From a virus, in the IMG/VR virus record IMGVR_UViG_3300032018_000004, positions 1-64,000 of that record: DNA of 64,000 bases, one strand, 5' to 3'. Positions 5,801-64,000 of this stretch are shown here, piece by piece. The notes below the pieces were generated by a model. The model ran no database searches. It saw only the letters and a list, made by a program, of their open reading frames with translations, and was not told the DNA's origin. Positions within the stretch are counted from its first letter, which is position 1; the number at the start of each line of letters is the position of its first letter. Position numbers and translations under genes: made by a program.

Positions 5801-6755
5801 ATGCACCAGCAGACGACCAAAACCCCGTTCCTGTTGGGGCATAATCTACCTGGATATTTACAGTTCTTACTGTTTTACTACCATCGTCATTGAATTGGAC
5901 TAAACCTTGGAACGTGATATCTACTGATATTTCATCAGCATCAATTTGTGTTGTTCTGGTTTGCGCCCCCCCCGAATTTGTGACATTAATAGAAAGAGAG
6001 TCTTCATAGATATCATTTGTATAAATAGTGGGAACCCCATCTCCAGGATCACCCTTAAATATTTCATATTCGACATTATCATAAGAACTGATAGCTGTTT
6101 CGCCAATTTTCAAATCAGTAATATCTAATGGCCCATATCCAAAATCAAACAGCAATCTTAAATACTGGTCATCGCCAACAACTTCTGTATAGGGAACAGC
6201 CCCATAAGGAGGTGTAAATCTATGTTTCCCTAAAATTTGAGGACGAACGCCATATGGAGAAATAGTGTTTCTTGACCCAGAAATGGAATACTGTTGGCTT
6301 TCTGACTCAGTTCCCCCGCGCAAAGCAGGCATATCTGGCAATGGTGGTGGAAAAAAGGAATTAGCTGCAAGAGAACCCACTACCATTACGGCGGCACCGG
6401 CAATCGTAGCTCCCCACCCCCCGGCCACAAATGTACCTCCTGCTCCGCCAGTGACATATGCGGAAGCAGCAATAACCGCAATCATCATTATGGTACGCAG
6501 GGGGTTCTTTCCCCCGCCGCCACCTCCAGAAGGAATGACCCGGACTGTTACCAAATCTCCAGAAACAACAATCCTGTCGTAAGAGTTGCTATTGACATAA
6601 GCCCCGTTAATTGCTACTCTAACATTAACAAAATCAACGATTCCAGAATTGGCTATAACTTCGTTGACTGATTTTCCCTCTACATCAACCCTGTCTATCC
6701 TTTGAACGGAGAATGGGCTTGGGCATGTAGAAACTCTTACTGGATTATTTTTCAT
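2895..6755 (-). CDS. Central tail tip / host-specificity protein (lambda I+J-like fusion)
   Basis: 1286 aa; N-terminal ubiquitin-like I domain and GGGGKNPLR-hydrophobic segment, SNPA motif, Fn3-like C-terminal region ending LRIKLGNLA. Confidence 0.9.
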   Translation of the reverse strand: MKNNPVRVSTCPSPFSVQRIDRVDVEGKSVNEVIANSGIVDFVNVRVAINGAYVNSNSYDRIVVSGDLVTVRVIPSGGGGGGKNPLRTIMMIAVIAASAYVTGGAGGTFVAGGWGATIAGAAVMVVGSLAANSFFPPPLPDMPALRGGTESESQQYSISGSRNTISPYGVRPQILGKHRFTPPYGAVPYTEVVGDDQYLRLLFDFGYGPLDITDLKIGETAISSYDNVEYEIFKGDPGDGVPTIYTNDIYEDSLSINVTNSGGAQTRTTQIDADEISVDITFQGLVQFNDDGSKTVRTVNIQVDYAPTGTGFWSSAGAFLVSEKRSTVIRKSLKWSVTTGQYDVRLTRITADTTDSKILDDSYWTILRTIKHITPINLTTKSALVAVRIKATEQLNGVVDQFNALCQLRCLDWDAGSSTWVSRATSNPASILRYVLQGVANHRPLADSLIDLTTLQNWHVFCAANGFTFNHVKDYRSSVWETLAMICSAGRASITRIDGRIGVVYDYLKTVPVQHFTPKNSWGFSAKKDFVTPIHGWKVQFINESNGYREDERIVYDDGYSSVNATKFETLNLVGITTSDLAWKHGRYHIASSRLRLETYSFNVDVEYLVCTRGDLIKFSHDVLLTGLGAGRVKSITTNAGYVQTITTDELFTMEAGKYYCVRARQSSGASVLLTVNTVAGDTSTFTLATPTLIASAPAVGDLVMFGESGSEAIDCIIKSIEPSGDLTARLNCVDLASAIYNADAGTIPAFVSPLTAKLTLPDPVIYSVASDKRALLDNLVDPATARILVELTPPSGKIENISSIECQYRVANSVGPYTSQVFPAGTTSLYLVNVENGISYDIRVRYLSAALTSGWTYQLDHLVTGSTDAPVLLPRVSGLELFGSNNSEEFTGKHAKFVWRAASISNSYDIDESGFGIDDGSLDLFFKDYEVRIYNGATLLRTEHVVDNSYTYIYEKNVEDGGAFRTFTIEVYMRGKQNQLSYLPAKMTVTNPAPATPTGISTRTSFKNIFLSYIQPTDLDWKGVRVWVSKTPSFTKDATTIVYEGPDTTIIIDALTGGTQLTTGTSYYVAMQAFDGFDYDGSASVEVEVVTQQVESAEIKELVLDKVLSGSFTGKDFIVGNGGQIRSGQTAYNTGNGWWLGRTAGAKAQMSVGSPTGNGWNWDETTGVMSYRGILSISSGSSGFSNFSDFPATLGAQSSAGLYLSSTYMGFWSTSWKTYIKSDGTFYFSGVDANNYLSYNGTDLTFAGKLNVKSATSGARTEITENGTKVYDSFGTLRIKLGNLA

Positions 6756-7137
6756 ATCTATAGTATCCCAAAATCCTATTCTTCCACATTACAGAATTTA
6801 TATTTTCTATTGTAACGTTCGACCCTTTTAGACAATGGATAAATAGTCCATCATCTAAATAAACACCACAATGCATGGGTTGGCCTTTCAATCTAATTAA
6901 AATAGCATCAAACTTATGTGGGGTTTTGACTTCTAACCACTTTACTTTTTCTTGATTAATCAATTGACTCAATTCAATCTCGTCCTCAGAGCTTGCATAG
7001 TCCTCCACATAAGTAGGGACCATTATTCCACATTCTGTCAAATATATTAAATATAGCAAGCCCCAACAATTAACCCCTTCAAAATCCAATCCATGGTCTT
7101 TGTACGGAATAGAAATATATTTATTTAAAAAATCCAA
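6745..7137 (-). CDS. NlpC/P60 tail assembly protein (lambda K-like)
   Basis: G(V)NCWGL and HCGVYL...FIH catalytic motifs. Confidence 0.9.
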   Translation of the reverse strand: MDFLNKYISIPYKDHGLDFEGVNCWGLLYLIYLTECGIMVPTYVEDYASSEDEIELSQLINQEKVKWLEVKTPHKFDAILIRLKGQPMHCGVYLDDGLFIHCLKGSNVTIENINSVMWKNRILGYYRYEK

Positions 7138-7602
7138 TTAGAACAAACCAGGATGTGTTGAAGGGATGAAAGACTCTGCTGGATATGGCTCAGACGATAA
7201 ATTTTGGATTGTCAATGCTCCAGAAACAGTTAAATCGTCATATTGAACGTCAGTCAATTCAAAATATGGGAATGACGCTTCTACTGTATTAACATCAGAC
7301 GACAGAACAATTTCTATTGTTACGCTTGGTGGAGTAGATACAGCCCTTATAGTTTGTCCAATTTCTCTACTGACATTATCTATGGTCAATCTTGCCGCTG
7401 GCGGGGTTTCTCCATCATCAGTAGGCAATACCATATCAAATGGTAATGAAATAAATAAATTCGATCTACTAGTTGTATTAACAGCATCAGACGTTACCCT
7501 GATCGGAGTTGCTAAATTAACATGGTCAATCGTTATCAAAATTAAAAACGCTACTGATGTTTCTTGAGCATTTACTGCTTGTTTCATTGAAAGAGATGTC
7601 AT
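7138..7602 (-). CDS. Minor tail protein (DUF1833-like)
   Basis: LPFDMVLP, LTIDNV, EPYP...F.P...PGLF motifs; position between distal tail and NlpC genes. Confidence 0.8.
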   Translation of the reverse strand: MTSLSMKQAVNAQETSVAFLILITIDHVNLATPIRVTSDAVNTTSRSNLFISLPFDMVLPTDDGETPPAARLTIDNVSREIGQTIRAVSTPPSVTIEIVLSSDVNTVEASFPYFELTDVQYDDLTVSGALTIQNLSSEPYPAESFIPSTHPGLF

Positions 7603-12147: not shown

Positions 12148-12312
12148 CTATTTTCTTGGGATTGATACAGTTGCTGTAAAAACACCCAATGCTAATAGTG
12201 CGTCACGCAATACATTCACGAAATCGGCAACTGGTGCCATCTTTAAAAACACCAATGCCGCCCAGGTCGTGAGAAGAAGTCCAGCGGCAATCATTTTATG
12301 GAGTGGTGTCAT
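12148..12312 (-). CDS. Small two-TM membrane protein, holin-like candidate (not in ORF track)
   Basis: 54 aa MTPLHKMIAAGLLLTTWAALVFLKMAPVADFVNVLRDALLALGVFTATVSIPRK; overlaps HNH stop. Confidence 0.45.
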   Translation of the reverse strand: MTPLHKMIAAGLLLTTWAALVFLKMAPVADFVNVLRDALLALGVFTATVSIPRK

Positions 12313-13213
12313 TTTGTTCCGAATTCAATAATTTGTTAAGGATATTGTATTGATACTCAATTTCTTTATGCTTCTTTTCGTGACACTCCTTGCAAAGAGT
12401 CATCCCGTTCTTTATATCCCAAAGAACATCGCATTCTAAAGCTTTATCCAAAGACTCTATATTGTTGTCAAATAATATCTGAATAAATGGGACTAAATGG
12501 TGAGCATTTAAATCGCCACCAGTAGTTTTCCCACAATCCTGGCAGATATAAATATCTCTTTTGTATACTTCATTTCTCCAAGTTTTATAGGCTGAAGAAC
12601 CCCTAATTAAATCAATTAACTTCTTCTCTTTCCTCTTCCAATTAGTTACGTCAAAACCCCTAAATTTTGCTTGAGAAAGAGACATCTTATCTTTTGATTC
12701 TTTAGAGTGTTTCTTTCCTTTCATGCCACGACAATGATTTTCTCCAGACGGTATTCTTGGGTCATCATTCGCCGTTAATCCAGCATTCCATCCAGGTATT
12801 CCTTTATGGCCGTCACTCATTCTCTTCAAAGTCTCTTCAGACCGATCCCGATGATGGTGAGTCTTTATATATTTATTTCCGTATTCAGCAAGTTCCCCAC
12901 ATCCACAAGCACACAGTGTTCTTTGAGACTCTTTCTCATTGTTCCGTGTCTCTATTTGTTTGTTTCTTTTATCTCTTTGGACATCATTCCATTTGGTCCC
13001 TAGTCTTGATTGTCTAATTTTTTCTTTAGCTTCATCAGAAAGCTTCTTCCCTTTCATAGAGGAGTTCTTCAATAATGTCTCAGATATTTTTCTTTTAGAC
13101 TCTTCTGAATGTTTAAAATTATTTGCTCTGTGGCAATGCCCTCTGGCATAATCTACATGAACTAATGTACCACAACCGCACTTGCATATTTTTTTCTTAA
13201 TTCTTTTACCCAT
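12296..13213 (-). CDS. Free-standing HNH homing endonuclease with NUMOD3-like repeats
   Basis: CxCGCG and KHSEESKxKIS repeats; C-terminal CQDCG...AHH...NGMTLCKECH. Confidence 0.9.
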   Translation of the reverse strand: MGKRIKKKICKCGCGTLVHVDYARGHCHRANNFKHSEESKRKISETLLKNSSMKGKKLSDEAKEKIRQSRLGTKWNDVQRDKRNKQIETRNNEKESQRTLCACGCGELAEYGNKYIKTHHHRDRSEETLKRMSDGHKGIPGWNAGLTANDDPRIPSGENHCRGMKGKKHSKESKDKMSLSQAKFRGFDVTNWKRKEKKLIDLIRGSSAYKTWRNEVYKRDIYICQDCGKTTGGDLNAHHLVPFIQILFDNNIESLDKALECDVLWDIKNGMTLCKECHEKKHKEIEYQYNILNKLLNSEQNDTTP

Positions 13214-14385: not shown

Positions 14386-15164
14386 TTTATCTCCCCAATA
14401 AATTCCAAAACTTCTTTCTTAGATTTACCTTGCAATTTCAGGTAATATATGGTCTTATTTATTCTCAATCTCTTTTCAAAATCTGGTATATTAAAAGCCG
14501 AATCATGTGCTTGGTGCAACGTCAACAAATCATCAGCCAGATAAAATGGGATATTATTTCTCTTTACCGTTTCTCTAAAGTCATCATCATCGTAGGCAAC
14601 TCCAAGAGAAAACATCTCATCAAAACCACCAATTCTTTCATATTGGACTTTTGAAATTGTGCTACAAAAATGAAACATTGCATTCCTATGTTTTGAATGC
14701 TGATACCACATTTGAGGTTCAAAATAGAAGTTTTCTATATCACCTTCCAATTCATTATAATTCACGACATTTAAACAAGAACATACCACATATTGATCTT
14801 TGTTCTCTGCAAATGCTTTATCTAACCCCTCTAGCACATTCCCATGGTGCATGACTTCTGGGTTAGTTATTACAATAAATTCACCTCTTGCCTTTTCAAC
14901 TCCTAAATTAAACAAAGGGGAAGGGTTATAACAATCAAAGAATTCAGATTCTATACATACCTTATCGGCACAATCATCAAAAAACTTTAATGTTTTTAAC
15001 AACTTCTCGTGTTCTTCTGCGTCTTTTCTGTTCTTCACATCTTCAACAATTACCAATTCATAATCATCACGATCTTTATAGTGATGGATGAACGAAGCAA
15101 TTGTGTTCTTCAACTGTTCCGATCTTTTTAAATATGGCATTACTATTGAGTATTTTTTACTCAC
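14382..15164 (-). CDS. Glycosyltransferase family 2
   Basis: YSIVMPY...ELVIVED, NLGVEKARGEFIV, GGFDE...YDDDDF. Confidence 0.9.
   Translation of the reverse strand: MSKKYSIVMPYLKRSEQLKNTIASFIHHYKDRDDYELVIVEDVKNRKDAEEHEKLLKTLKFFDDCADKVCIESEFFDCYNPSPLFNLGVEKARGEFIVITNPEVMHHGNVLEGLDKAFAENKDQYVVCSCLNVVNYNELEGDIENFYFEPQMWYQHSKHRNAMFHFCSTISKVQYERIGGFDEMFSLGVAYDDDDFRETVKRNNIPFYLADDLLTLHQAHDSAFNIPDFEKRLRINKTIYYLKLQGKSKKEVLEFIGEIN
14962..14989 (-). promoter_or_regulatory. sigma28-type promoter inside GT gene, facing last GT and tail tube gene
   Basis: TAAAGTTT-N12-GCCGATAA. Confidence 0.7.
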
Positions 15165-25126: not shown

Positions 25127-26533
25127 TTAAAAAATGATGCCTTTTGCCTTTTTGATTCTTTCTTCTACGAGATCACTAATTGATTGAGTTTTAGATTTTG
25201 CAGAGAGAACTGATTCGATTACCATCTTTTTAACATCTTCTGGTGTAAAATCCAGATCAATCGTTTGTTTTTTAATTTCAAAATCAATTACATCTTTTTC
25301 TTTCACTTTCTCTGTATATACCTTATCGGCATTTTCTTCAGGAAACTTTAATGTTTTTTCAATCTTTTCGTCAACATACGCACGAATTGATTTAATTTCT
25401 TCAAGAATTTCTTGGAATTTATCGATATCACTTTTGGTGGCAGTTTCTGTTTCTTTAGAATCGATTATCTTTTCTTCTGTATTATCTTCCTGATTATCAA
25501 TAACCATGGTTTCTTTTGTTTCTTCCTGAACGTCCAATGATTTCTTCGTTGGCTTGTCGCAACCTTCATATTGGGGGCAATTTTCTCCATCACAACTACC
25601 GTCTTCCCCATCACAAGGCATAGCATCCTTTTCAGATTTTTCTTCCGCTGCATCTTCTACAACTTCAGTCATTTCTGTTTTTTCTTCGGTTGATTCTGTC
25701 TTTTCTTCGGATGATTCGTCAGAAAAGCTTCCCCAATCTTTCTCCATTGCTTTCCGCAATTTACTCTCTTCGTCTTTAAGGGCGAGAGAAATTTTTTCTT
25801 CCATGGCATCTCTCATCTTGGACATATTGCCTTCGCATTTTTGGGAAACGCTGAGGCTCCCATCCTCATTTTTGACCAATGGCATATAGCCCTCGATATC
25901 AATATGACCAATTACTTTTGCTTTTTCTTCGGTGGGTTCGGAAGTAAGCTCGATGTATTCTTTTGAGTCTTTTAGTTTTTCAACCATTGATTTTACTTCA
26001 GCAGATTTGATTTCCCCCCTCTCTAGGGAGGCGACCATTGATTTAGCCCCGTTAATGATGGTCGCGGAGGGATTCGCTGGTATTGTTACACATGATAATT
26101 CGAGAAGTTCACACTCTTCATATACAGTACAAGGGACTTTCCCATTTTTATCAACATATTTCTGGCTCTTTTCATTGTCATATATTCTAACTGGTCGAAA
26201 TCCAACTGAAAAACTTGACATGAAACCATTTTTGTAAAGAGAATAAATCTCATTTCCCGCTTCCGTATCTGCGAACTTGATTTTGAATTTCAAACCATTA
26301 GAGTCAGTCTTTTGCCAAATAGATTTCGCAACTGGGAGTGACCAGTAATCATGATTTACCAAAATTACTGGATTCATTCTATAATTCTTCAATCCTTCTT
26401 CCGTCCAAGCAGAAGCAAGAATCATTTCATTATGCCTATCGACCTCATTGGTAGATGCATAGCAAACAATTGAGTTTTCATCGTCCAACATTTCGCTTTT
26501 TTGTGCATACGCGAACATTTTATTTTCAGCCAT
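25127..26533 (-). CDS. HK97-family prohead protease with long acidic scaffold-like C-terminus
   Basis: NPVILVNHD, SFSVGF, ELSCVTIPANPSA. Confidence 0.93.
   Translation of the reverse strand: MAENKMFAYAQKSEMLDDENSIVCYASTNEVDRHNEMILASAWTEEGLKNYRMNPVILVNHDYWSLPVAKSIWQKTDSNGLKFKIKFADTEAGNEIYSLYKNGFMSSFSVGFRPVRIYDNEKSQKYVDKNGKVPCTVYEECELLELSCVTIPANPSATIINGAKSMVASLERGEIKSAEVKSMVEKLKDSKEYIELTSEPTEEKAKVIGHIDIEGYMPLVKNEDGSLSVSQKCEGNMSKMRDAMEEKISLALKDEESKLRKAMEKDWGSFSDESSEEKTESTEEKTEMTEVVEDAAEEKSEKDAMPCDGEDGSCDGENCPQYEGCDKPTKKSLDVQEETKETMVIDNQEDNTEEKIIDSKETETATKSDIDKFQEILEEIKSIRAYVDEKIEKTLKFPEENADKVYTEKVKEKDVIDFEIKKQTIDLDFTPEDVKKMVIESVLSAKSKTQSISDLVEERIKKAKGIIF
25323..25350 (-). promoter_or_regulatory. 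sigma28-type promoter inside protease gene, facing major capsid gene
   Basis: TAAAGTTT-N12-GCCGATAA ~350 bp upstream of capsid start. Confidence 0.75.
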
Positions 26534-34274: not shown

Positions 34275-34302
34275 TTATCGGCATTTTACTTAAAAAACTT
34301 TA
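34275..34302 (-). promoter_or_regulatory. sigma28-type promoter upstream of terminase operon
   Basis: TAAAGTTT-N12-GCCGATAA. Confidence 0.75.
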
Positions 34303-35132: not shown

Positions 35133-35160
35133 TTATCGGAATATTTCATTAAAAACTTTA
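35133..35160 (-). promoter_or_regulatory. sigma28-type promoter at the head of the late strand
   Basis: TAAAGTTT-N12-TCCGATAA. Confidence 0.72.
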
Positions 35161-54995: not shown

Positions 54996-55488
54996 CCCTC
55001 AAGGAACAAGATAGAGATACCCGCCATGCTTGTGCGGAAGCGGTTATTGGACTATCAGAGCGTCAATTTGGTGGTGAGATAAATAAAAGTGAAGCACACG
55101 CTGCATGTATGAATGCGATTGCTTTATAAAGGAGAGGGTATTATGTTCATCATGAAGTAATTAATGATTTGGTTTTAGAAGCAATTAAGAAAAGTAAACC
55201 TATTTTCACAAGCATTCAAGGTACTTATTGTAGGTGAAAAATATGAAAAGTAGAACTAAATGGCTGACATTTCTAACTGCACTTTGGTTTGTGATAATAA
55301 TGACTCTTTTGTGGTTGGCTAAATAGGAGGGGAACATGCCTATAGATATATTTGTAGAGAAAATTGTTCTATCATTAGTATTTTGTGGGTTTGGTATATA
55401 TTGTTTGCATTTGACCAGGGGCAATAATGGGATGTGGCAAACAATATTAAGGCTTGCAATTATATGGTTTTCCTAAATAGGAGAAAAA

Positions 55489-55698
55489 ATGGAGATTAGT
55501 AAAGAATGCATTGAAAACTTAATTAATGGGGCAGCGCTGAACGGGCCTGGAATATTAAGCCATTATGAAGCAAGCTTAATTTTTAAGATTGCACTAGAAA
55601 GAATATCGCCCGACAAAAATATAGGTGAATTGGCTATTGAAATCTTGAGGGAGTTATTTCCGGCCACAAGACCAATAGGAATATTGAATAATGACTAG
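55489..55698 (+). CDS. Hypothetical protein
   Basis: AGGAG RBS. Confidence 0.5.
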   Translation: MEISKECIENLINGAALNGPGILSHYEASLIFKIALERISPDKNIGELAIEILRELFPATRPIGILNND

Positions 55699-56245
55699 CC
55701 AAAATCAAAAATCTCTCTGGCTCTTTGGAATCGCTTTCTACATTCTAATTGCAATTGGATTCATGCAAGCAGAGAAGAAGGCCGATAAGCTCCAAGAGCA
55801 AGTAGATACACTAACAAATGAACTAAGTGGGAATTATAACCTTGACTTTTACTGGACAGATAATGTAAAATTATCAGCACCAGAAGAACATATCCTCGCT
55901 AAGAACATTTATTACGAATCTGGGGTTGAAGGATATGATGGAAAGCTTGCTGTTGCCCAGGTGACATTAAACAGACTAGAATCTGGAAAATGGGGGAATA
56001 CGATAAAGGAAGTCGTGTATTCCCCAAACCAGTTTTCCTGGACATTGAAGAAGAAACAGGAAGAGCCGAATGGGGTGTTGTGGGAAGAGAGTAAGCGTGT
56101 TGCTAGAGACTTCAATAGGGGATTAAGGATTAAGGAATTGGATTCAGCAACATCATATCATTCTGATTCGGTTAAGCCTGGGTGGGCTGTTTATGGTGAG
56201 CCAATCATTAAGATTGGAAAGCACATTTTTTATAGACAGTCATAA
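55691..56245 (+). CDS. Cell wall hydrolase (SleB/Hydrolase_2) with N-terminal TM
   Basis: LAKNIYYES, AVAQVTLNR, QFSW, IGKHIFY. Confidence 0.92.
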   Translation: MTSQNQKSLWLFGIAFYILIAIGFMQAEKKADKLQEQVDTLTNELSGNYNLDFYWTDNVKLSAPEEHILAKNIYYESGVEGYDGKLAVAQVTLNRLESGKWGNTIKEVVYSPNQFSWTLKKKQEEPNGVLWEESKRVARDFNRGLRIKELDSATSYHSDSVKPGWAVYGEPIIKIGKHIFYRQS

Positions 56246-56246
56246 A

Positions 56247-57365
56247 TTATCGAAATAATTCACTTTCTTTGTTAGAGGAACTATAAATGCCTCTATTGTG
56301 GATATTAATAGCGCCGTTTGACTTATCAACTACGCCACATGAAGAACAGGTTTGGCTTGTATATGCTGGATCAACGGAGAGAAGATAGAAACCTTCTTCT
56401 TCAGACCGTAATGCCAGTTTAGCCAGAACCTGCTTGTAAGACCAATATTGAAGTCTGTTTTTAAATTTAGTATTTAGTTTCGATTTGTATTTTACATTCT
56501 TAAGGTCTTCAACCACTACGAGATTATACGACCCAAGGTCGATGTTGTTTACAATTTGGTTAGTGAGATTTTTCTTGTGGATTAGTAGCTGTTTATAGTT
56601 CTTAGAGCCTCGTTTTTTGTCGGCAAGTTTTGCATAAATCTGTTTTAATTCCTCACCATAGTGAAAGCCATTTGAATCAGAAATTAACTTATTATAGCCG
56701 CAATCCAACCCGATTGATTTGCCATGTTGTTTTACTTGTGCTTGTTCTTTCTCATAGAAAAATGTGACGTAGAAATTTCCATTGATTTTAGATAATTGAA
56801 TAGTATTTTTTCGAGTCCAATCTTTAAATTTCAAACTATTCTTGTGCTGTTTAATTGGGACATTAATTGTTTGGTATAGGCGCTTATCTTTCTTATACGG
56901 AGTAGTTATCCTAATAAATGAGTCAAATGAACTGCTTTCCTTAATGTTCCATAAATGATATCCTAAATTTATTGAAATAGTTTTTACGTCAATTTTAATA
57001 CGTTTCAAATAATTAATGTTTAGTTCTGAATATTTCTTATTTAAAAACGATTGATGGATATCCTTTATCTTACACTTGGTATAAAGTTTCTGATATCGCT
57101 TGAATGTTTTGTTTTTTGTGTATTTTAGATTTGAGCGGATTATTTCAGAAGCTGTTTTATAGGATAACTCTTTCCACGAACTATATTCAAAAACATCATT
57201 ATGGAGATCTTTGCATGACATTAACTTCTTGAGTGGCAACTCGCCTTTGACGATGAGATCGATATACAAAATTACACACTGCTTAAAGTCCTCATGAATC
57301 TTTTCGAGGAGGGCAAGTTTGCGTTTATTTGCGAATTTAAGAGTATGTTTAGATGATCTTATCAT
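56247..57365 (-). CDS. tnpB: TnpB/Cas12f-like RNA-guided nuclease homologue lacking RuvC-III; no transposase adjacent
   Basis: IGLDCG (RuvC-I), VVEDLK (RuvC-II), VDPAYTSQTCSSCG, then directly NGAINI with no second CxxC or D-x-D. Confidence 0.85.
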   Translation of the reverse strand: MIRSSKHTLKFANKRKLALLEKIHEDFKQCVILYIDLIVKGELPLKKLMSCKDLHNDVFEYSSWKELSYKTASEIIRSNLKYTKNKTFKRYQKLYTKCKIKDIHQSFLNKKYSELNINYLKRIKIDVKTISINLGYHLWNIKESSSFDSFIRITTPYKKDKRLYQTINVPIKQHKNSLKFKDWTRKNTIQLSKINGNFYVTFFYEKEQAQVKQHGKSIGLDCGYNKLISDSNGFHYGEELKQIYAKLADKKRGSKNYKQLLIHKKNLTNQIVNNIDLGSYNLVVVEDLKNVKYKSKLNTKFKNRLQYWSYKQVLAKLALRSEEEGFYLLSVDPAYTSQTCSSCGVVDKSNGAINIHNRGIYSSSNKESELFR

Positions 57366-57372
57366 AATTATG

Positions 57373-57401
57373 TTGACTTTGGTTGAATTAATTATTATAG
57401 T
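57373..57401 (+). promoter_or_regulatory. sigma70-type promoter for downstream plus-strand genes
   Basis: TTGACT-N17-TATAGT. Confidence 0.6.
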
Positions 57402-57404
57402 ATC

Positions 57405-57432
57405 TTATCGGCATAATTAACTAAAAACTTTA
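57405..57432 (-). promoter_or_regulatory. sigma28-type promoter facing tnpB-like gene
   Basis: TAAAGTTT-N12-GCCGATAA, ~40 bp upstream of ATG. Confidence 0.75.
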
Positions 57433-57816
57433 ATGAAATTAGAAAAGGAAATAACTATGGGCTTGTCGTGCTCGTGTCCAGATTGGGATGGTGATGGGTG
57501 GTATTACATTCCAGCCAGTGAAGATTTCACAAAACTAAATACTAAAACTCGCAAACGGTGTTGTTCCTGTAAAGAGTTAATTGATGTTGGGGCTGATAGT
57601 TTGAAATTCAAGCGTTGTCGTGGGCCAATTTCCGATGTTGAAGAGCGTATTTGTGGAGATGAGGTTAGAATTGCCCCTTGGTATATGTGTGAGAAGTGTG
57701 GTGAGCAATACATGAATTTGGAAGACTTGGGCTATTGTATTTATATTGGAGACAATATGTTCCAGTTGTTGGAAGAATATAAGGAAATGCAGAAATGGAG
57801 GAGTGAAAATGCTTAA
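57433..57816 (+). CDS. Cys-rich hypothetical phage protein
   Basis: RKRCCSCKELI...MCEKC. Confidence 0.7.
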   Translation: MKLEKEITMGLSCSCPDWDGDGWYYIPASEDFTKLNTKTRKRCCSCKELIDVGADSLKFKRCRGPISDVEERICGDEVRIAPWYMCEKCGEQYMNLEDLGYCIYIGDNMFQLLEEYKEMQKWRSENA

Positions 57817-58087
57817 ATACCTAACATTTTTCTTCTTGCTATTTCTGCTAATTTTGTGTATACCTTATTTATCAAATGCCCAGACATACACAGAGCCGGA
57901 TGAATACTACCAGAACATCCCTAAATTGAAAGACTGTCAAGAAATTGTAATTGATGAGCGTTTTATTGGTGGAAAACTGAGCAAGAAAACTATATGCTTT
58001 TGGGAAGTTAAGATTGCTTCTGGAGTTATGACATTCTGGAAGGAAATTGGGAAAGACCATTACGGATTTTGTGAATAGGGGAATGAG

Positions 58088-58294
58088 ATGAAGAGTTGGA
58101 TTGTTCGCAATGTTCCAGAGTTCCCGAAGCTAATGAAAATGAATAGCTGTGGATGTGTTGTCCTATTTATTAATAATTCTAAAGGGTTTGTAGTAAAATC
58201 TGATTTTGACGTGATTGATGATTACATGTATGAGGTTGGACATGAAAGTGACGAGTGGGAGATTTCTCAGTTTGTTTTTTTGACGGAATTATAA
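58088..58294 (+). CDS. Hypothetical protein
   Basis: FPKLM...VVLF...G.VV pattern; RBS. Confidence 0.55.
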   Translation: MKSWIVRNVPEFPKLMKMNSCGCVVLFINNSKGFVVKSDFDVIDDYMYEVGHESDEWEISQFVFLTEL

Positions 58295-58460
58295 AACTAC
58301 AGAATTGAGAAATAATAATTTTGTGAATAGGAGAGTGGGATGGTAGAAACAGTTTTATCTCTTGCTTTGGAAATGGGGAAATGCCTTCTACATATATGAT
58401 GCTGAAATTTAAGAAATATCTTGAGAGTGTCGTGATTGAAAACATATAAAGGTAAACACT

Positions 58461-58913
58461 ATGAATGAAATTCTTTTCCTACTAATTTTAGGCCATTTGT
58501 TTGGAGATTATTTGCTCCAGTCATATTGTCTTGCCGTCAATAAGAAGAAATATTCATTGATTGGTTGGAGTTCTGCAACTTATCATTGCCTTATTTATAC
58601 CACTACAATTTATGGATTTTTATTAATTGAGGGAATTAAATTAAATTTCATTCAATGCCTCTTAATTTTCCTGTCACATTTTATCATTGACAAGTTTCCA
58701 GTTATTGAATACTATATGAAAGTGATGGATATTAGAAGTTGGGATAGAGAGCTTCCTAAAACAGGCAATGGTGTAGATTTTGAAAATAAAGAACCAATTA
58801 CAATTATTCAATTAGTTACGACATCGTTTGGGTCGTTTGTTTATATTATGTGTGATAATACATTTCATTTATTCTTTATGTATTTAATTCTGAAATTCAG
58901 TATTGGAGTATAA
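58461..58913 (+). CDS. DUF3307-like membrane protein
   Basis: GHLFGDYLLQ, HCLIY, SHFIID, DNTFH. Confidence 0.88.
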   Translation: MNEILFLLILGHLFGDYLLQSYCLAVNKKKYSLIGWSSATYHCLIYTTTIYGFLLIEGIKLNFIQCLLIFLSHFIIDKFPVIEYYMKVMDIRSWDRELPKTGNGVDFENKEPITIIQLVTTSFGSFVYIMCDNTFHLFFMYLILKFSIGV

Positions 58914-62261: not shown

Positions 62262-62289
62262 TAAAGTTTTGATACATTTATGCCGATAA
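62262..62289 (+). promoter_or_regulatory. sigma28-type promoter upstream of HTH gene
   Basis: TAAAGTTT-N12-GCCGATAA. Confidence 0.75.
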
Positions 62290-62572: not shown

Positions 62573-64000
62573 ATGACCGTTTCAATTAGGCCCAGATCAA
62601 TCGATCAAAATTCAGAAAAAAGCATTATCACTCAAATCATAACAGATACTGAATTCTGCTGCGCTATCCTCCCAATTGCCAAACAAGAATATTTTGAAAT
62701 TAAATATGCAAAAATTATTTTTGGATGGTGCAAAGATTATTATGATAAATATGAATCCGCTCCTGGGAAATATATCACTGATATTTTTAATACGAAGAAG
62801 AAAAAGCTCTCATCTGAGGATATAGAACTCTTAGAAGATTTCTTACAGGGTTTGTCAGGGAAGTATATTGAAGATGGGGAAAAAAGAAACAATAAATTTT
62901 ATATTGAAGAAGCTATAATTTATCTTAAAAAACAATCATATATGCGCTTGTCTGAAAATCTTGCTAGTTATGCGAAGCTTGGGGAAGTTGCAGAGTGTGA
63001 GAATCAATTAGTCAATCACAAAAAAGTAGAAGTATCTACTTCTATCGCCGTTAATTTGAATGATCCAGAAGTAGCAAAAAATATTTTAAAGAAGAGTGGG
63101 GAAAATAAACTATTTTCTCTTCCTGGCGCTATCGGCAAATTACTTGGAAATTTTGAATCTTCGAGGACATATGTTGTATTGGCTAAGAGCGGAATTGGCA
63201 AAAGCTGGTTCTTAACCGAATTGGCCCTTTGCGCTGCAATGAATAGAATTAAAGTAGTTATGGCAAATTGGGAAATGTCTCAAGAACAAGTAGCCAGTAG
63301 GTATTATAAGAGACTTACGGGGCTTGGGGATTCTGCTCAAAACTGGAACTACCCTTGCATTGATTGCCAAAAATCACAGATGGGCACTTGTAATATAAAA
63401 AGTAATAGAATCCCCCTTGTAAATTCTTCTGGAGAAATTCCATCATTTGAAGATTCAATATCTTCTGGATATGAGCCATGTAGTAAGTGTAGAAATGATC
63501 TAGATTTCAAGGCTGCTGTTTGGCATGAAAGTATTTACAGAGATGCTTTAAATACGGAGAAATTGACAAAAACACTTAGCGGGTTTGATTTAATGTTTGG
63601 GAAAGATATGGTTAGGTCAATCTGCTTCCCAAAGTTTTCTGCAACCATTTCTGATCTCGAAAGAGAAATTCTATCTCTCCAGTATAGGGAGGGATTTTTC
63701 CCGTCAGTGATTACCATCGACTACGATGCCCTGGTGCTCCCAGAAAGGTTTTACAGCGAACAAAGACACAACTCTGACGAAGTGTTTAAAAGCATTGGCA
63801 AACTATCTCACAAGTACGGTATTTGCATTTTTGTAGCCAGCCAAGTGAACCGTGAGGGTGCAAAAATGAAGTCGGCAAAAGTCACATCAATAGGGGATGA
63901 TTGGAGAAAAGTGCAACATGCAGATGGAATTTTTATTTTAAATCAGTCTGATGAGGAAAAACGTAATAAAATAATTAGGATAGGGCTTGGCAAAATGCGT
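62573..64000 (+). CDS. DnaB-like replicative helicase (runs off window; not in ORF track)
   Basis: Open from ATG 62573 (MTVSIRPRS...); AKSGIGKSW Walker A, WEMS, IDYD, ASQVNREG, KVQHADG. Confidence 0.9.
   Translation, partial: MTVSIRPRSIDQNSEKSIITQIITDTEFCCAILPIAKQEYFEIKYAKIIFGWCKDYYDKYESAPGKYITDIFNTKKKKLSSEDIELLEDFLQGLSGKYIEDGEKRNNKFYIEEAIIYLKKQSYMRLSENLASYAKLGEVAECENQLVNHKKVEVSTSIAVNLNDPEVAKNILKKSGENKLFSLPGAIGKLLGNFESSRTYVVLAKSGIGKSWFLTELALCAAMNRIKVVMANWEMSQEQVASRYYKRLTGLGDSAQNWNYPCIDCQKSQMGTCNIKSNRIPLVNSSGEIPSFEDSISSGYEPCSKCRNDLDFKAAVWHESIYRDALNTEKLTKTLSGFDLMFGKDMVRSICFPKFSATISDLEREILSLQYREGFFPSVITIDYDALVLPERFYSEQRHNSDEVFKSIGKLSHKYGICIFVASQVNREGAKMKSAKVTSIGDDWRKVQHADGIFILNQSDEEKRNKIIRIGLGKMR

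Follow-up and report, generated by a model that had tools for sequence, protein, structure and literature searches.

A probable recent loss-of-function allele of a solo TnpB gene in a sediment phage

What becomes of an RNA-guided nuclease gene in a phage when part of its catalytic centre is deleted and its reading frame stays open? The question is raised by a tnpB gene in the IMG/VR virus record IMGVR_UViG_3300032018_000004, of whose 80,974 bp we analysed the first 64 kb (64,000 nt; hereafter the window). The record is linear, comes from sediment metagenomes and is estimated to be 86% complete; its structural genes occupy the minus strand up to ~35 kb, and beyond that point the plus strand carries genes for replication and auxiliary functions. 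The tnpB open reading frame (ORF), which is uninterrupted, is the sole long minus-strand gene in the plus-strand block of 35.7–64 kb and so runs against its surroundings, as a preliminary description drawn from the letters alone had noted. That description offered two readings, a domesticated RNA-guided DNA binder or a recently inactivated element. We consider it probable that a phage-resident TnpB element lacking the transposase TnpA has very recently lost its function here, and that no regulator has been selected, because the gene shows zero divergence from intact siblings, its gap occurs in no other aligned relative, protein and RNA appear to be hit together, and the predicted guide finds no target.

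The deletion and its distribution among relatives

By sequence and by the fold of the TnpB/Cas12f core, the 372-aa product is a TnpB. It matches the Pfam family Cas12f1-like_TNB (PF07282) at 33.2 bits against a cut-off of 26.3, over profile positions 1–38 of 60 only, and PF01385 at 16.8, under the cut-off of 30.5; two PHROG transposase families are matched at 2e-18 and 6e-17. With the AlphaFold model (mean predicted local distance difference test score, pLDDT, 86.6), Foldseek retrieved AsCas12f (E 9.6e-13), the ISFba1 TnpB (5.6e-12) and the ISDra2 TnpB (2.3e-9), and a profile of the family matched Cas12f in the PDB at 1.8e-21, together with TnpB chains. Megablast of positions 55000–58500 gave zero matches in 50,697 phage records, and a non-exhaustive literature search found no paper on this phage lineage.

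The RuvC-I aspartate D221 and the RuvC-II glutamate E286 are in place, in columns that hold Asp in 71/72 and Glu in 72/72 aligned relatives. In the window protein, TSQTCSSCGVVDKSN (ending in CSSCGVVDKSN) is joined directly to GAINI. At this place the motif CxxC-(x)13-CxxC-x-x-x-D-A-D-x-N-A-A-x-N-I is found in relatives such as those from an uncultured phage of 462 kb and from a Desulfovibrio phage, and the segment absent from the window protein amounts to 20 residues. The CCCC zinc finger is therefore incomplete, with the first CxxC left (C340, C343) and the second pair deleted, and so is the RuvC D-E-D triad, whose third Asp column falls inside the gap. This agrees with the preliminary description, which had reported an apparent in-frame loss of the second CxxC and the RuvC-III Asp next to intact RuvC-I and RuvC-II residues. 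In the AlphaFold model the residual zinc-finger stretch (residues 337–349) has pLDDT below 50, compared with 91–95 for residues 341–380 of an intact sibling. On the DNA level, pairwise alignment with the relative at locus L006 (73% protein identity) gives a gap of exactly 60 nt; its flanks in L006 are CGAAC and CAAAT, and the window is left with CAAAC.

Is the loss shared? The window protein's 90% cluster also holds two siblings of 392 aa, encoded on a 75.8-kb and a 35.6-kb ENA contig. They are identical to the window protein at 372/372 shared residues and contain the missing 20 residues in addition; the one residue at which the two disagree lies within that very segment. In a 14-row alignment (A1), 12/13 relatives carry the segment, the exception being the truncated P0038. 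In the larger alignment A5, the gap is found in 0/72 relatives, both Cys of the second pair are conserved in 72/72 and the Asp preceding x-N-A in 71/72. Alignments A4 and A5 comprise 72 of the 120 listed hits, short hits being among those omitted: P0018, P0024, P0032 and P0039 have an intact C-terminus and a cut N-terminus, P0081 lacks the N-terminus, and P0038, P0048, P0054, P0056, P0078 and P0094 are C-terminally truncated proteins of a sister clade. The phage and metagenome loci read across the region likewise retain the segment, barring L065, L017 and the sister-clade exceptions treated below. Alignment with homologues, which the preliminary description had recommended, thus confirms a deletion of 20 aa and 60 nt and shows that the 72 aligned relatives do not share it.

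Could the deletion be an error of assembly or sequencing, the real phage carrying an intact gene of 392 aa? The intact siblings do come from other assemblies, and the site, between hairpins and short repeats, is one at which errors might occur, but the contig data make this explanation hardly credible. A Logan contig of a first run (3,827 nt, depth 27.2) covers 55600–57900 and one of a second run (6,566 nt, depth 15.5) covers 55600–57820, each with 0 other letters and 0 gaps. The two runs belong to two studies, and no inserted form was reported in their Logan contigs, which drop rare variants. Both runs are possibly the source of the record; in a third run (X3) the deletion site is without cover. 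The 372-aa protein is also recorded from one JGI contig and one Logan contig. Furthermore, short-read assemblers err on the scale of their k-mers, and a loss of 60 nt is longer than that. The contigs rule out that a single assembler created the deletion, and a minor intact variant is still compatible with them.

Predicted RNA scaffold and guide at the 3' end of the gene

The extent of the TnpB unit can be read from its relatives. Comparison by blastn aligns window positions 57437..56316 with positions 5930..7056 of the related phage contig L004, and 56320..56238 with its positions 7112..7194, which delimits a unit common to L004 and L006 that begins ~71 nt ahead of the ATG and extends 9 nt beyond the stop codon (Table 1). 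Outside it, the flanks of the window phage and the L004 phage are unrelated. The right end of such a unit is where a guide RNA (omegaRNA) scaffold would be expected, and the 245 nt at the 3' end of the L006 gene, which is intact, fold with a z-score of -4.98 against shuffled sequences, compared with -2.02 for the 188-nt equivalent of the window.

Two hairpins stand out in 29 distinct relatives with the same codon spacing, and individual folds display both in most of them. The first (HP1) lies between the codons of the first CxxC and those of G-E-x-Y, and in the second (HP2) the codons of C-G-x-x-x-D-A-D form a stem with those of N-A-A-x-N-I. For HP2, 75.3% of 493 cells are paired, compared with 32.7–48.3% for slid partners; 52 cells have changed on both sides (7–26 for slid partners), and the covariation score of 0.288 exceeds the 0.071–0.130 of the slid controls and was reached by 0/500 shuffles. 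When the same peptides are recoded with synonymous codons as a control, the native hairpins prove more stable, with a mean z of -2.29 (HP1) and -2.21 (HP2), with z < -2 in 18/29 relatives for each and z < 0 in 27/29 (HP1) and 28/29 (HP2); the clear outliers L048, L054 and L080 form a subgroup of their own. The register of HP1 varies between sequences, and it was tested by synonymous recoding only, HP2 by pair counts as well. RNAalifold yielded no consensus structure from the gapless codon-locked alignment. Additionally, a terminal hairpin with a 9-bp stem is shared by the window and L006, and one of its pairs has undergone a compensatory change (U-A in the window, C-G in L006).

The 60-nt gap stretches from the loop of HP1 to the loop of HP2 and removes the 3' arm of the former and the 5' arm of the latter, so that the guide-RNA scaffold is probably damaged along with the protein. 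A search with Rfam (E up to 1) returned nothing in 55500–57900, and at seven relatives' loci it gave 9 matches, namely 8 tRNAs and a weak sub-threshold ftsZ-DE, none of them at the 3' end of tnpB; the omegaRNA family of IS607 elements, RAGATH-18, is presumably among the 4227 Rfam models.

The homology with L006 stops at 56238, and the flank just beyond it, the predicted guide, is antisense to the last codons of a sleB-like hydrolase gene, in line with the source of the guide suggested by the preliminary description. Guide candidates of 12–20 nt have no second match in the 80,974-bp record and find only their own flank. Among one genome each of 185,579 species, the 20-nt guide matches six stretches, five copies of one Clostridium gene and an archaeal contig; without homology past the 20 nt, these are taken as chance.

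These findings bear on a rival reading, in which the protein has lost its nuclease activity, still binds DNA under RNA guidance in the manner of TldR or dCas12f, is in an early phase of domestication and is made late in infection. The frame has been kept despite the loss of RuvC-III and half of the zinc finger, the WED, REC, RuvC-I and RuvC-II parts of the fold are confidently predicted, the deleted allele is dominant in two runs, and the leftover arms of HP1 and HP2 are able to form a chimeric hairpin in the predicted fold of the window. Published TldRs, in the accessible portion of their description (10.1101/2023.11.30.569447), also lack the C-terminal zinc-finger and RuvC part. We do not dismiss such a binder outright, because the rest of the predicted fold is unchanged. 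Nevertheless, it appears very unlikely to us, given that the deletion is private, with siblings identical at 372/372 residues yet intact and the gap found in 0/72 relatives, that each of two scaffold hairpins lacks one arm, that the guide has no second target in the 81-kb record, and that its six matches elsewhere fit chance.

Promoter, origin and genomic setting

The preliminary description had placed the gene under a sigma28-type promoter, and this assignment gains support from recurrence. The motif TAAAGTTT-N12-GCCGATAA, which agrees with the sigma28 consensus, occurs in 5 exact copies in the window, compared with 0 expected, and a sixth copy has one mismatch. The copies face the small terminase, major head, glycosyltransferase, tnpB and DnaB-like genes. 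At the corresponding place, the L004 tnpB has TAAAGTTT-N11-ACCGATAA, and of the four sites of this class in the related phage G001, one stands ahead of tnpB, with N11 and A replacing G. Among 101 loci, the motif is present only in the window's own locus (L003) and in four loci of two L004-type contigs. A Sigma70_r2 gene was not found in the 81-kb record. Pieces of ~35 nt with the motif also occur in unrelated contigs of three runs.

A sigma70-type promoter-like site between tnpB and the next plus-strand gene faces outward and matches at 10/12 positions; the total number of such sites in the region is not above chance. The outward arrangement is retained in L004, beside a different gene, and is absent upstream of homologues of the ORF at 57433–57816 in five phage loci, which have no tnpB match. 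The listed ATG of that ORF, at 57433, overlaps the -35 box of the tnpB promoter. Its true start is probably 57457, because one homologue in another phage aligns from residue 9 only and AAGGA precedes the ATG at 57457.

As the preliminary description had it, the gene is solo. Pfam searches of the 80,974-bp record gave zero matches to Resolvase (serine-recombinase TnpA) and Y1_Tnp, and none of the 10 neighbouring ORFs is a transposase of either kind. An upstream ORF of 189–208 aa with the C-terminal motif of IS607-type TnpA was seen in 9/31 relatives' loci, all at 31–39% identity to the window protein, and 4/4 of those tested carry Pfam Resolvase. Since such distant relatives adjoin a serine-recombinase TnpA and the closer ones are solo, the lineage is probably descended from IS607-type elements. 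The left flanks in the window and in L004 are AT-rich and show no GG at the junction (boundaries ±~3 nt), which does not fit the GG ends and G-rich target-adjacent motifs (TAMs) given for IS607 elements in the available text of PMC13565253.

For an empty site, 17 loci with sleB-like relatives and five with homologues of the 57433 ORF were gathered, and 6/22 (L118–L123) were compared with the window ORFs. In none of these six loci are the two flanking genes side by side, and no natural empty site or TAM could be read from them. As reconstructed from the window, an empty site would consist of the sleB-like gene ending in TAG, followed by AAGGA and the ATG at 57457. In L004 (5434–7354), the sleB-like gene is shrunk to an N-terminal ORF of 52 codons ending at the right end of the tnpB unit, and on the other side of the unit a 3D-domain-like gene is followed by a 52-nt remnant of the sleB-like 3' end. 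It looks as though the hydrolase module had been exchanged around the unit. Elsewhere in the window, an HNH endonuclease gene lies among the tail genes (12296–13213), and the DnaB-like helicase gene (62573–64000) has a weak Hom_end match at residues 76–176, a possible intein.

Table 1. Positions of the tnpB unit, its parts and nearby signals in the window
Feature	Position	Strand	Remarks
tnpB ORF	56247..57365	-	372 aa, uninterrupted
RuvC-I Asp D221 (GLDCG)	codon 56703-56705	-	computed from ORF start
RuvC-II Glu E286 (VEDL)	codon 56508-56510	-	computed from ORF start
Deletion junction	56316..56320	-	CAAAC assignable to either side; 60 nt (20 codons) gone
Whole TnpB unit common to L004 and L006	56238..57437	-	blastn; both edges ±~3 nt
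Presumed omegaRNA scaffold remnant	56238..56425	-	within 3' end of coding sequence; HP1 minus 3' arm, HP2 minus 5' arm
Terminal hairpin of presumed scaffold	56242..56263	-	spans stop codon; ends 4 nt short of the unit's right end
Predicted guide	56218..56237	-	flank just past right end; antisense to last sleB-like codons
sleB-like cell-wall hydrolase gene	55691..56245	+	Pfam Hydrolase_2, 3e-22; last codon and stop within the 9 bases common to L006
Sigma28-type promoter-like motif facing tnpB	57405..57432	-	TAAAGTTT-N12-GCCGATAA
Sigma28-type motif copies	14962-14989, 25323-25350, 34275-34302, 35133-35160, 57405-57432	-	motif scan
Sigma28-type motif copy	62262-62289	+	motif scan
Sigma70-type promoter-like site	57373..57401	+	TTGACT-17-TATAGT; faces outward to next plus-strand gene

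Recurrent C-terminal losses, interpretation and known systems

We propose that a TnpA-less unit of tnpB and omegaRNA resides in a sediment phage of ~81 kb and is transcribed from one sigma28-type late promoter. In intact relatives, as the family suggests, it would act as an RNA-guided nuclease, with the omegaRNA scaffold lying within the last ~200 nt of the gene and ending 9 nt beyond the stop, and with the adjoining flank as guide; the nuclease would presumably cut genomes without the unit and favour the unit's own inheritance (homing). In the window's phage, 60 nt would very recently have been lost, probably between two short CAAAC-like repeats located in the loops of two adjacent hairpins. 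The loss would have taken away half of the zinc finger, the strand with the RuvC-III Asp, and an arm from either scaffold hairpin, leaving an open yet catalytically dead gene with a damaged guide RNA, a fresh allele without further changes.

Several points weigh against this account. The deleted allele is the sole form assembled in the two runs (~27x and ~15x) and is no rare variant there. The frame has stayed open, and the remainder of the fold is predicted with confidence, both of which would also be true of a nuclease-dead binder. With zero substitutions relative to the siblings, neither relaxed nor purifying selection is measurable. Slippage between the 5-nt repeats is a likely origin of the deletion, as judged from L006, a relative of 73% identity, and the assignment of the hairpins to an omegaRNA scaffold draws on their position at the right end, their conservation and what is known of TnpB elements. 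C-terminal loss is, moreover, not confined to the window. Many TnpBs of the sister clade end just past the first CxxC, including 90% clusters of 135 and 17 members. In a quick tree of 55 sister-clade rows (P0049 and P0123, missed by the motif pattern, were dropped), 31 truncated and 24 intact proteins are interleaved; the two states require no fewer than 12 switches, and well-supported branches force 8 of these. In L017 (3691–4160), one extra C stands directly before a conserved Gly codon, and the remainder of the zinc finger and RuvC-III are intact in the +1 frame. In L065 (334–500), a more distant relative, a separate in-frame loss of 15 nt within D-A-D-x-N-A-A is seen against L043. Such recurrence, in the sister clade and in L065, could reflect selection for the loss of the nuclease.

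The sister-clade site has further peculiarities. Two more extra-C-before-GGN sites occur in L017 and L020 (3685–3760), both of which lie on the 373-kb IMG/VR contig 3300045988_180118, and the extra base of these alleles falls in the loop of the first scaffold hairpin. The site could be a mutational hotspot, a product of 3'-end exchange between copies, or a place of programmed +1 frameshifting. Two other loci, at first sight decayed tnpB copies, were rejected as such, their stops at Gln and Trp positions of relatives suggesting recoding: the L021 gene (3001–4170) has two in-frame TAG, one at a Gln of relatives, and the L027 gene (2501–3700) has four in-frame TGA, three at a Trp of relatives. 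These are probably phages with reassigned stop codons, their genes not being broken. The L025 gene (1591–2780), initially counted as decayed, has a single TGA, inside the D-A-D-x-N motif.

Two explanations make use of this recurrence. One holds that the nuclease is costly, for instance through off-target or sibling cutting late in infection, and that knock-outs sweep without any new function. The assembly of only the deleted form in two runs would suit it, as would the independent C-terminal losses (the L017 frameshifts, the 15-nt deletion in L065 and the scattered truncated alleles of the sister clade, with their at least 12 state changes). We regard it as unlikely, since most relatives keep an intact triad, the phage clade retains the intact gene and the same promoter across 73% protein identity, and dominance in two possibly related samples may be a matter of drift or of a founder effect. 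The other explanation goes further and takes the loss of the second zinc-finger half and RuvC-III to be a recurrent selected step in phage-borne solo TnpBs, with the window and sister-clade alleles yielding nuclease-dead binders. Were this so, the +1 site of the sister clade might set the ratio of short binder to full nuclease by frameshifting, and the window would represent a first step of TldR-like domestication in a lytic phage; we think it rather improbable.

Of the two readings offered by the preliminary description, recent inactivation is thus favoured by the intact siblings with 372/372 identical residues, and the domesticated binder is disfavoured by a private deletion and a probably damaged scaffold. 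The role of RNA-guided regulator in particular is not supported: a private deletion beside intact relatives, which that description had named as refuting, is what was observed, with intact siblings and 0/72 aligned relatives lacking the segment. Taken alone, the deletion amounts to a very young and ordinary knock-out of a selfish gene, and a new RNA-guided regulator should not be read into it. The follow-up contributes the description of a phage-resident, TnpA-less TnpB lineage, in which the guide-RNA scaffold, as inferred here, is embedded in the codons for the zinc finger and RuvC-III, the tnpB gene belongs to the phage's late sigma28-type promoter class, and the C-terminal nuclease part has been lost repeatedly and in differing ways. 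One deletion would disable both protein and RNA, since the two are encoded by the same bases. The lineage is a convenient natural case for the study of TnpB decay versus repurposing in viruses, and the frameshift site of the sister clade is the lead most worth following.

Among known systems, the window gene resembles the TnpB/omegaRNA (OMEGA) units of IS200/IS605 and IS607 elements, such as ISDra2 and ISFba1, and Cas12f in its fold and profile matches, its RuvC-I Asp, RuvC-II Glu and first CxxC, in a predicted structured RNA at the 3' end of the gene running to the right end of the unit, in a predicted flank-derived guide, and in distant relatives (31–39% identity) that adjoin a serine-recombinase TnpA. 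It differs from them by lacking TnpA, the second CxxC and the RuvC-III Asp, by having no Rfam match, and by a late-type phage promoter. Specifically, no Resolvase TnpA, as in IS607-family transposons, and no Y1 (HUH) TnpA, as in the IS200/IS605 family, was found in the record, and the AT-rich flanks differ from the GG ends and G-rich TAMs that the available text of PMC13565253 gives for IS607.

TldRs are, in the accessible portion of the account by Wiegand et al. (10.1101/2023.11.30.569447), defined by inactivating mutations conserved at the level of 50% clusters, and retain a working guide RNA aimed at a promoter. The window gene is like them in being a phage-encoded TnpB derivative with an incomplete RuvC triad and without the C-terminal zinc-finger and RuvC part. 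Unlike the clade-conserved inactivation of TldRs as described there, its loss is private, its scaffold is probably damaged, and no guide target was found in the phage record.

A further parallel is offered by the free-standing homing endonuclease genes of lytic phages, such as Seg and Mob of T4 as covered in the available text of PMC13565253: in both cases a lone nuclease gene sits between conserved phage genes, the window's tnpB unit is placed slightly differently in related phages, and intact units would likewise act on co-infecting genomes that lack them. The difference lies in target recognition, which is achieved by protein in the T4 enzymes and is predicted here to be achieved by RNA.

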